DNA of 63,766 bases, counting the filler, from Craspedostauros australis (Eukaryota): the NCBI GenBank assembly GCA_030167865.1. It is 21 parts of 21 records of this genome, joined end to end, with 100 filler letters (N's around TTAATTAATTAA, not from the genome) between each part and the next. Parts side by side here need not be neighbours in the genome. Positions count along the whole stretch, not along the records: positions 37,003 to 39,585 come from JALAGF010005067.1; 20 more parts are not named here. The stretch is one strand, 5' to 3'. This document shows, piece after piece, positions 36,903-39,685 of the stretch. Numbering within the stretch: the stretch's first letter is position 1; each line of letters starts with the position of its first letter. Made by a program: the position numbers and the translations under genes. The notes beneath the pieces are model-generated. The model saw only the letters and a list, made by a program, of their open reading frames with translations, did no database searches and had not been told where the DNA came from.

Positions 36903-37002
36903 NNNNNNNNNNNNNNNNNNNNNNNNNNNNNNNNNNNNNNNNNNNNTTAATTAATTAANNNNNNNNNNNNNNNNNNNNNNNNNNNNNNNNNNNNNNNNNN
37001 NN

Positions 37003-38535
37003 GTGTGAACGTCAAGCTTGGCAGGCGGATGCCCTGGCTTCCGGACAGTGACACGAGACCCAAACACACGTAGGTGCCCGAGATCTAGCTTGACCCCATG
37101 TTGGAGCTCGTAGGGAGTCTTGGAGATGGACACATGCCACAACTGGTTCTTCAGGTAGACCGAATGCACGAGCGCAAGGGCCCAGAACTGCGGCTTGAGA
37201 CCCGCGGAATACAGTAGGGCCCTCGTCANNNNNNNNNNNNNNNNNNNNNNNNNNNNNNNNNNNNNNNNNNNNNNNNNNGCCAAAAGTGCGGTTCAGCCGC
37301 TCCACCTTCCCATTCATCCAGGAGCAACCAGCACCAGTGGGCTCGAGATTGTACCCAGCATCACGGACGGCCACTTGGAAAGCTCCAGATCGAGTAAGCT
37401 CCCCGCCTGTATCGACACGCACCGCGCGATGACCCGAACGTCGGCCAAAATCACCCAGAAGTTTGGAGAATATCTCAACTGGAGGCGACCTGTCCTTGGT
37501 TGGAAACACCCACGTATATCGTGTGTACGCATCCGTGATGAGGAGGTACGACGTGAAGCCTTCGAGGGATAGGACAACCCGGCGATTGGCATCGCGGCCG
37601 CGTGGCTTTGCAGCACCATATGCCTCGTTGGTGGCACGCATGAAACCGAAGTCTGCATGGAACCGAGCGCCCGGATGTGGTTCAACAGTGTCCACGTTGG
37701 GTCCGCGAGCGGCCTTCTGGCGGTGAGCCTGGCTGCACGTCGTGCAGTGTCGCAACGGGTGCGCGCTGGACCGTAGTTTGCCAGGGACGCCAGTGACATG
37801 CGCAGGCAACTTCTCCAACTGCGACATGCCGGGGTGTCCCAGGCGCAGGTGCCATAGCTCCGCTTGCAAGGCCGGCGACGAAGTCTGAATGGCGAACGCC
37901 ATGGGTGACCGCGTGGAGTCGCCGTTGAAGAAGTACAACCCATTGGACTGAGTCATAGAGGCAGAGCAGTCACCGCTTGCACCATGGAACGTGAGCGTGG
38001 CGCCTTGTAGGGTGGATGCAAATGTGAAGCGCTGGAAGGCATTGTCACTCTGTCGCACGATGGACTGTGGCGAGATGAGTGTCTCAGCCAGGTTGGGGCA
38101 AAGCGCGGTCCAGACTGAGATAGTCGACCCCTCGCACGTGGGAACGTCCAGGAAGCCTTCACCCGGGCATACCATGGACTCAGCAAGAGCATCAGCTGCC
38201 GCCAGCATGAGAGGTGAGGAGAAAGGCTGGTAATCCCTCAGGACTTCCTTGTACGGAGTCGCGCTCACATTGGCACCGATGTCGCATTGACCCACACCGC
38301 CATAAGGATTCCAGGCCCGAATGCCGGATCCATCAGTACAAGCGGCGTGAACACAGCAGGCCCTGACCACAGCATATCCCATAAGCTTTTGTGGCTGGAT
38401 GGCGGAGGGAGCAGGAAGAGCAAGCACGGAAACCTCATCAATGTGATGACCTGCTGGTTTCCCGCTGTTGCGATTGTTGAAAGATGGCCGTTCACCAGAG
38501 AGCTCGCTTACTCCTGGCCGGCAGACCAAAAATCC
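37003..38535 (-). CDS. pol of Copia lineage C (protease, GAG-pre-integrase, integrase), in the -1 frame relative to gag
   Basis: Motifs QCDIGANVS, ELWHLRLGHPG...CTTC, FHADFGFM, VRVDTGGEL, NGKVERLNRTF, FWALAL, HLRVFGS. Confidence 0.9.
38487..38535 (-). promoter_or_regulatory. Putative -1 programmed ribosomal frameshift signal
   Basis: In-phase G GAT TTT (38535-38529), 6-nt spacer, then a 36-nt hairpin containing the gag stop. Confidence 0.75.
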
Positions 38536-39585
38536 TGGTCAACGGATTCGAGCACTTCATTGGACACCACGAGGTTGGCAATGGACTCATGTTCATCCCC
38601 GCTGTAGCGCTGGATGGCCCGAGCGTTGGCCGTGAAGGTCTGCTTGGTGAAGTGCCCGCGGAACTTGTCACGCATGGCGTCAGCATACTCCGAATGCGAC
38701 GCAGCGTACTCGTTCATGTGCGCATGGCGCCCAAAAGTCTTGCACGTGTCCTTGGTGTGACCCATGTTGCAGCAGGCCTCACAGAAGGCACCAGGCACCG
38801 GCTTGTAAAAGGCGTGCTGGCGCCTCTTGGGACATTGGCCTTGGCAACCACCACCACCGCGTCCTTGACTGCGTGTGTTGACACGATGCGCGACACCTCG
38901 AGCAGGCTGCTGGGGAAGATCCGCAATTTCCTGCCCAAGTTGCTCCACGCGCAGATTGATGGGAAGGTCCTTGGGCACGGCAACGCCACGGACGGCAGTA
39001 TGGAAGTGCCCCAGTTCGTACCCATGNCCACGAAGTTCTTCAAGGAAGTGGCGCGTGAGCTCCAGCTGGGAGATGTGTCGGCGAAACACGAGGCCCTCCA
39101 CAAGCTGGAAGCTGAACAGCTGTTCAGCGTACGTCGCAACGGACCCTTGAAAAGCTGGAGCCTTGTGGACCTGCGACTGGACGGCATCATACGCGCCAGA
39201 GAGCAGTGTATGAATGAAGACGTACGCGGAAAGCCGGTGCGGCATGATGCCGATGCTGCTGGTGTACTTCAGGCGAAGCGCGGCATGCTCCAGGTTGATG
39301 ACACCATCGGCCTGCAGCTTCACCACCAGCTGGTCATTCATGGCAAAGACACGGTGACCGTGGGCATTGCGAGGAATGACGGAAGAGGACGGCTGGAACG
39401 AACTCAGCGGGCAAGAGTGCAAGTCCGCACGTGCAGCAGCAGCCTGGAACTGGCCATACCAGTTGAAGATCGCGGTGGGCGAGTCATCCTTGAGGGGCAG
39501 ACGCCACTTGTCCCAGGCCTGACCAACACCGTAGTCCAGACGCTCGAGAGCGGGCGGGACCTCGTAGGTACGGTGTCGCCGGAAC
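38508..39585 (-). CDS. gag C-terminal part of a Copia element (lineage C), with CCHC knuckle
   Basis: Frame open from the scaffold edge to TAA at 38508; CEACCNMGHTKDTC = CX2CX4HX4C. Confidence 0.8.
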
Positions 39586-39685
39586 NNNNNNNNNNNNNNN
39601 NNNNNNNNNNNNNNNNNNNNNNNNNNNNNTTAATTAATTAANNNNNNNNNNNNNNNNNNNNNNNNNNNNNNNNNNNNNNNNNNNN

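Follow-up and report, generated by a model that had tools for sequence, protein, structure and literature searches.

The window analysed here is a stretch of 63,766 bases from Craspedostauros australis (assembly GCA_030167865.1), and one of its small contigs (37003-39585, 2,583 bp; JALAGF010005067.1), interrupted by a single N50 gap at 37229-37278, carries a fragment of a retrotransposon. Both gag and pol of this element lie on the minus strand, with pol being set in frame -1 with respect to gag, and at their junction a candidate slippery heptamer is followed by a bulged stem-loop. Reverse transcriptase (RT), RNase H and long terminal repeats (LTRs) are absent from the fragment because the contig ends. 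The features of the locus are listed below, where the shift window denotes the stretch between two stop codons in which any change of frame must fall.

38508..39584, minus strand: gag open reading frame (ORF), 358 codons plus the stop codon TAA, 5'-truncated by the contig end at 39585
38742..38783, minus strand: CCHC zinc knuckle of Gag, C-x2-C-x4-H-x4-C, residues 268-281, placed by motif position
38539..38541, minus strand: TGA closing the -1 (pol) frame upstream and bounding the shift window on its 5' side
38529..38535, minus strand: candidate slippery heptamer G GAU UUU, in gag phase and coding for Asp-Phe, from the sequence and conserved in relatives
38523..38528, minus strand: 6-nt spacer UGGUCU, from the sequence
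38487..38522, minus strand: bulged stem-loop, from folds, covariation and a covariance-model match
38510-38508, minus strand: gag stop codon TAA, located in the hairpin's 5' half and bounding the shift window on its 3' side
37279..38538, minus strand: pol ORF, -1 frame, stop-free for 420 codons as far as the N50 gap (37278)
38283-38281, minus strand: protease-like motif D-I-G-A, at pol residue 86
about 37726-37941, minus strand: GAG-pre-integrase domain PF13976, pol residues 200-271, E = 4.7e-9, then the integrase region
37003..37228, minus strand: integrase continuation (C-terminal, SH3-like) after the N50 gap, PF25597, E = 2.6e-4, below the curated cut-off

Read from stop to stop, the gag frame is open over 38508..39629 (real sequence begins at 39584) and the pol frame over 37012..38538, with the first Met of the latter at residue 53. 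The window Gag has no match in Pfam. Its zinc knuckle, of which C268, C271, H276 and C281 are invariant in our Gag alignment (A1), stands upstream of pol, as expected of Ty1/Copia, and in pol the order seen is protease motif, PF13976 and integrase, with RT beyond the contig end. Sixteen long Pol homologues (31-51% identity, 902-1585 aa) all contain PF07727, reported as Copia-type RT, which in 13 of them follows PF13976, the order typical of Copia; the Pol proteins that are 41-47% identical to the window pol measure 902-1393 aa and have PF13976 before PF07727. From the protease-then-integrase order and the PF07727 domain of its Pol relatives, we provisionally assign the element to Ty1/Copia. 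The relatives stem from a marine-eukaryote transcriptome set and from metagenomes. In two more distant Pol relatives, P0017 and P0018 (1543-1585 aa at 31-33% identity), Pol includes a dUTPase domain (PF00692), an unusual feature among Copia-type elements.

On the minus strand the junction reads ...GTT GAC CAG GAT TTT TGG TCT GCC GGC CAG GAG TAA GCG AGC TCT CTG GTG AAC GGC C.... With TGA at 38541-38539 closing the -1 frame and TAA at 38510-38508 ending gag, any shift must fall in 38538-38511, i.e. within 28 nt. A preceding interpretation of this DNA, referred to here as the sequence-only reading, had given the same frames and TGA and a shift window of less than 30 nt, all of which proved correct to the base, and its heptamer, 6-nt spacer and hairpin were recovered as described at 38535-38529, 38528-38523 and 38522-38487 respectively. 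The hairpin is built from a lower stem GCCG/CGGC, a 3-nt bulge GAA on the 3' side, an upper stem GCCAG-GAGU / GCUC-U-CUGGU and the loop AAGCGA, and it was both the minimum free energy (MFE) and the centroid structure in every fold tried. Folded alone, the 36 nt gave -17.0 kcal/mol (z = -2.36; 4/200 shuffles as good), which is modestly better than chance and, taken by itself, weak evidence. No Rfam family matched at E <= 1 in 38300-38700.

A scan of metagenome contigs with a Pol profile matched 478 stretches, 148 of which encode relatives, and the best 80 were kept as loci. Recognisable gag was found beside pol in 22 of these best 80 loci, with the following junctions.

L001, L002, L003, L006 (n = 4): pol in -1, with 34, 16, 61 and 16 nt respectively shared with the gag end
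L005, L007, L009, L010, L011, L013, L014, L015, L016, L017, L025, L029, L040 (n = 13): a single in-frame TGA between gag and pol
L069 (n = 1): one fused ORF, a distant, typical single-ORF Copia
L018, L022, L034, L060 (n = 4): unclear or degenerate junction

A further locus, L004, identified separately and with its gag cut by the contig end, likewise has the -1 arrangement. The five -1 relatives are 24-29% identical to the window element in Gag and 41-44% in Pol. In each of them the heptamer is in phase and occupies the same alignment columns (GGATTTT in L001-L004, AAATTTT in L006), followed after a spacer of 5-6 nt by a helix whose lower stem (4-5 bp) and upper stem (7-10 bp) are separated on the 3' side by a bulge of 3 nt, which reads GAA in four relatives and ACA in L002. 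At the nucleotide level, identity is highest over the heptamer and the 5' arm (0.70, compared to about 0.35-0.5 in the flanks), and detectable Pol homology begins ~80 residues past the shift site. The 16-nt overlap of L002 and L006 holds essentially the heptamer, the gag stop coming 3-5 nt past it, so that the shift can hardly be elsewhere in these two elements, and the heptamer of L002, L004 and L006 stands only 6 nt past the opening of the -1 frame. The loci L004 and L006 have near-identical flanks and differ by GG versus AA in the heptamer, a change that replaces the Asp codon by Asn and keeps the slippery pattern, turning G GAU UUU, which is not of the strict X_XXY_YYZ form, into the textbook A AAU UUU, which is. 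The base following the heptamer varies (T, A, G or C), so a run of four T (T4) is conserved and one of five (T5) is not: T4 is present in three of the five relatives and T5 solely in the window element and L003.

Two peculiarities of these loci were noted in passing. At L004:143-300, TAC stands where the close relative L006 has the gag stop TAG, making the gag frame at least 50 codons longer with the cassette intact. In L002 an N-terminal piece of gag (L002:5780-6268) comes after pol and ~690 nt of non-coding sequence, an order that would be expected if, during assembly, the element had been joined across a collapsed LTR or a circle with one LTR. In a set of viral contigs, a pattern scan for the heptamer and both arms gave 57 matches, none of which was found by the covariance model at E <= 0.01 or encodes a Gag or Pol relative; these 57 are chance matches, and a Pol-profile scan of the same set detected no Pol relatives either.

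Window element and -1 relatives were combined in one alignment (A3, six sequences) with a core helix of 9 pairs, giving 54 cells. The core is paired in 96.3% of these cells, and three of the nine pairs show compensatory change (5 cells), namely G-C to C-G, U-A to A-U or C-G, and G-C to U-A. The resulting covariation score of 0.333 was attained by none of 500 shuffles (0.104 ± 0.047), and pairing fell to 10-52% when the partner was slid by 1-3 columns. RNAalifold, run without a supplied structure, led to the same helix and one extra pair, and the upper stems outside the core, entirely different in sequence, are paired in each element. A covariance model (R1) was built from the five relatives with the window excluded; applied to the whole window (both strands, filters off), it returned 38482-38541(-) with 27.7 bits and E = 8.2e-6 as the sole significant match, the next having E = 3.5. 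Its matches among the best 80 metagenome loci were the five training sequences alone, followed by L045 at E = 0.082. Conservation of the heptamer (6/6 sequences) and covariation of the stem (3/9 pairs), which the sequence-only reading had named among the checks on its proposal, are therefore both present. Together with the -1 ORF overlap, the in-phase heptamer and a structure starting within 5-9 nt, the conserved and covarying site in six sequences completes the sequence and structural features expected of a canonical -1 signal.

The proteins point to the same place. An exhaustive HMMER search for homologues of the window Gag gave 32 matches with 23-39% identity (55% for one 48-aa fragment), which are stand-alone proteins mostly of 220-685 aa; one match of 1,150 aa is a repetitive protein aligned in 9 stretches, and no Gag-Pol fusion is among the 32. 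Conversely, Gag is fused to none of the 16 long Pol homologues as judged by length and precomputed domains, and the 11 inspected by sequence contain no Gag. In an alignment of 13 Gag homologues F352 is invariant and the preceding Asp nearly so, and the proteins end 0-7 residues on. Such a 'DF' 0-7 residues from the C-terminus was seen in 17 of the 32 homologues, the others being fragments or having an alignment that stops short of the C-terminus, and in 9/9 of those aligned to query residue 335 or beyond. This conserved Asp-Phe is encoded by the GAU UUU of the proposed slip site. The homologues P0020 and P0022 extend 7 residues past 'DF'. The sequence-only reading had regarded gag and pol in one frame in other copies as the outcome that would speak against it; the opposite was found, with all five readable junctions of the same clade in -1 and no fusion among the Gag homologues.

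From the position of the heptamer, its conservation and the covarying helix, G GAU UUU and the bulged hairpin very probably constitute a programmed -1 frameshift signal for the production of Gag-Pol in a Ty1/Copia-type element. As far as comparative sequence analysis can tell, the cassette is a genuine, conserved -1 signal of textbook architecture, supported by covariation, in a superfamily where such signals are uncommon. The combination proposed by the sequence-only reading, a Copia-type element with frameshifting in retroviral style, thus gains the support of five relatives with the same cassette. In the proposed mechanism most ribosomes translating gag would halt at UAA 38510-38508 and release Gag, while a minority would pause at the bulged stem-loop that starts 6 nt past the heptamer. 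On G GAU UUU the P-site tRNA-Asp and the A-site tRNA-Phe would slip back together by one base, with perfect re-pairing in the A-site (UUU to UUU) and partial re-pairing in the P-site (GAU to GGA), as at this heptamer in some RNA viruses. Translation would then continue in the -1 frame as ...Q-D-F-L-V-C-R-P-G-V-S-E..., with the junction ...QDF-LVCRPG..., to give a Gag-Pol fusion comprising protease and integrase and, in complete copies, RT and RNase H. The presumed role of the signal would be to keep the ratio of Gag-Pol to Gag low.

Several observations weigh against this interpretation. Hairpins of the -1 elements are modest in stability (-9.1 to -12.7 kcal/mol in the relatives, -17.0 kcal/mol in the window; z = -1.4 to -3.7), longer contexts of the window hairpin fold no better than chance (41 nt, z = -1.12, 24/200; 106 nt, z = -1.21, 23/200), and the MFE structure of L006 is a variant of the consensus fold. 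Sequences for which DNA is available number only six, only 2.6 kb of the element copy is present, on a tiny contig from an assembly that is gapped and concatenated, and the P-site re-pairing from GAU to GGA is weak. In addition, the two lower-stem arms both encode, in the pol frame, an Arg that is conserved in 6/6 sequences, so part of the sequence conservation could be at the protein level; in L002 the Arg codons differ and the helix register is shifted by one base. A protein constraint may contribute to the conservation observed, without explaining the compensatory pairs or the heptamer.

The conserved Arg residues encoded by both arms also bear on a different explanation, in which Pol is made by internal initiation or reinitiation, by splicing, or by transcriptional slippage on the T run, and the helix has another role, be it in packaging, in dimerisation, as a pause or processing site, or through protein constraint on the Pol N-terminus. 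Other Copia elements offer precedents: splicing is known from Drosophila copia and plant Copia elements (PMC5580714), the bypass of the gag UGA in the Copia element Tca2 is called unclear in PMC2194720, and a follow-up study of the proposed Tca2 readthrough is reported in a review (PMC7175516). For the window element we consider such a route unlikely, as an in-phase slippery heptamer is present in 6/6 sequences, with A AAU UUU, the sole variant, being slippery as well, and its distance of 5-6 nt from the helix corresponds to the canonical -1 geometry. In L002, L004 and L006 only 6 nt of open pol frame precede the heptamer, no conserved ATG near the start of the pol frame was noted on reading the sequences, and residue 53 is the first Met in the window. 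Efficient transcriptional slippage would moreover require a longer run than T4.

Pseudoknots occur in many retroviral signals, and the sequence-only reading had suggested that the loop GCGA could pair with a downstream UCGC, so that the stimulator would be an H-type pseudoknot instead of a simple bulged hairpin. Both 4-nt motifs are indeed present in the window. The best complementarity between loop and downstream sequence, 5 bp, was equalled or exceeded in 416/500 shuffles, and in the five relatives, where the best matches measure 3-7 bp and their places differ, between 71 and 500 of the 500 shuffles did equally well. As complementarity is at shuffle level and no conserved partner was found across the window element and the five relatives, the pseudoknot was rejected and appears quite unlikely.

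An ancestral single gag-pol ORF that was disrupted by a 1-nt indel or by a homopolymer-length error in the T5 run, leaving an artefact or a dead copy, might be suspected from the small, gapped contig among concatenated unplaced ones, from the homopolymer itself and from the lack of a second copy in the window as a check, and it is very unlikely given that the same -1 arrangement recurs in the same columns of five relatives at 41-44% Pol identity, that Gag homologues are stand-alone and end here, and that neither frame (358 + 420 codons) contains another stop. With T4 in three relatives and the arrangement unchanged, it is independent of homopolymer length, which removes the homopolymer error that the sequence-only reading had named as an alternative.

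The relationship between the -1 elements and the other junction types was addressed with a quick, unrooted maximum likelihood tree of 32 Pol N-terminal segments. It comprises the window element with L001, L002, L003 and L006, six of the eight loci with a UGA and a long stem, four of nine provisional in-frame-stop loci (among which L032, L033 and L043 are unconfirmed) and 17 other loci; the segments of L004, L010, L017, L018, L032, L033, L040 and L043 were too short for the filter. The five -1 elements form one group with an SH-aLRT (Shimodaira-Hasegawa-like approximate likelihood ratio test) support of 98. This group, L008 and an in-frame-stop group (support 88) form an unresolved trichotomy, and these three branches (17 elements) are set apart from single-ORF Copia by a long branch with a support of 100. 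In the largest stop-codon group, UGA-CGG-UCC-GGG (UGA-UGG in L018) precedes an extended, conserved stem-loop in which 5 of the 16 predicted pairs are compensatory, and this looks like a signal for stop-codon readthrough. It was located at the following positions.

L005:3417-3495, L009:3281-3359, L013:3437-3515 (= L014), L017:2543-2621: UGA and extended stem-loop
L025:3210-3288, L029:1607-1685, L018:1503-1581: UGA and extended stem-loop, further loci

A single in-frame TGA at the junction was also observed at L007:2088-, L010:5805- (= L011), L015:3194-, L016:3072- and L040:982-, and these loci have no obvious conserved helix downstream of it, their folds ranging from -3 to -16 kcal/mol. In L032/L033 and L043 a TGA lies just upstream of the pol ORF, with no recognisable gag there. 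Tree and junction types together suggest that closely related clades use either readthrough or -1 frameshifting at the same junction; in this unrooted tree, the change in recoding may have gone in either direction.

Programmed -1 signals are well known from retroviruses, with U UUU UUA and a stem-loop in human immunodeficiency virus 1 (HIV-1) and A AAU UUA in Rous sarcoma virus (RSV). The dianthovirus red clover necrotic mosaic virus (RCNMV) uses a G_GAU_UUU shift site, and the bulged helix of signals of the type found in RCNMV and in pea enation mosaic virus 2 (PEMV2) pairs with a distant 3' element. Like the signals of retroviruses, Ty3/Gypsy and BEL elements, the cassette described here has pol in -1 over the gag end, with a heptamer in phase and, after a spacer of 5-6 nt, a helix to its 3' side; unlike them, it belongs to an element with Copia gene order (protease and integrase before RT) and with Copia-type RT in its relatives, and it combines the non-canonical heptamer G GAU UUU with a bulged hairpin that has no Rfam match. 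PEMV2 and RCNMV share with it the identical heptamer and a bulged stem-loop stimulator, in PEMV2 also the UGG following the heptamer, and the position of the 0-frame stop close to the heptamer, as in three of the -1 relatives, although a retrotransposon Gag-Pol here and an RNA-virus replicase there represent unrelated genetic systems. G_GAU_UUU is documented as the -1 site of pea enation mosaic umbravirus, with G_GAU_UUU_UGG_UAG in PEMV2 (PMC5009743), and the abstract of a mycovirus study names it a 'typical -1 slippery motif' (PMC11050907). Among animal LTR retroelements surveyed, pol is in -1 in 28 of 51 (PMC5009743), and in the summary of Gao et al. 2003 given by the same paper, -1 cases are numerous for animal retroelements and absent for plants, with Copia not singled out.

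Within the superfamily, the yeast Pseudoviridae Ty1, Ty2 and Ty4 also have two ORFs and obtain Gag-Pol through recoding, but Ty1 shifts by +1, at a hungry codon and without a stimulatory helix (PMC7175516), in the direction opposite to that proposed for the window element. The readthrough systems of murine leukaemia virus (MLV) and the Copia element Tca2, described with UGA and a pseudoknot (PMC2194720, PMC5580714), resemble in their layout the sister clades, with UGA, often UGA-CGG, and a stem-loop; the window element has no such in-frame stop and needs a change of frame. Similar in setting are the CoDi elements (Copia from diatoms), likewise Copia elements of marine protists and with CCHC knuckles in some families, for which split frames were already noted (Maumus et al. 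2009, PMC2806351), while the main text of that account gives no slip site, shift direction or RNA structure. Our literature searches for a -1 frameshift cassette in Copia or CoDi elements returned no description beyond one sentence in Maumus 2009.

The window as a whole is a chain of small contigs, ~30 in number, and not one piece of chromosome. Their joints are N44-TTAATTAATTAA-N44 linkers with stops in all six frames, so ORFs and repeats are not to be read across contig joins, and the contigs also carry internal N50 gaps. After each linker a stretch of ~230-260 bp and then N50 recurs (joins at e.g. 36903-37002 and 39586-39685). Searches with blastn and tblastn for a second copy of the element within the 63,766 bases returned the self-match alone. 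A neighbouring contig (33157-34860, plus strand) has an open frame of 567 codons in which a block of ~120 residues (DAFLDTLSLEELIGMS...SLHSVG) occurs twice, flanking an N50 gap; it could represent a tandem duplication or an assembly duplication and has no relation to the Copia element.

The usual account of Copia elements is that they have a single ORF or use a +1 shift, splicing or readthrough (PMC5580714, PMC7175516), a picture that a conserved -1 signal would widen. It is possible, if doubtful, that the cassette represents the first conserved, covariation-supported family of -1 stimulators in Ty1/Copia (Pseudoviridae), defining a clade of Copia elements from marine protists beside sister clades that use UGA readthrough and another conserved helix. 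If so, the lineage would have switched its mode of recoding with the Gag-Pol junction staying in place, and the invariant G.U closing pair and 3-nt GAA bulge beside G_GAU_UUU could mark a regulated stimulator, acting through a long-distance contact or a bound factor. The -1 clade and its putative readthrough sisters would offer a natural comparative system for the exchange of recoding signals in retroelement evolution. For annotation, the cassette and model R1 should allow Gag-Pol to be called correctly, current gene calls giving a separate Gag and an N-terminally truncated Pol, and for protist translation systems the cassette would provide a compact and testable frameshift signal.

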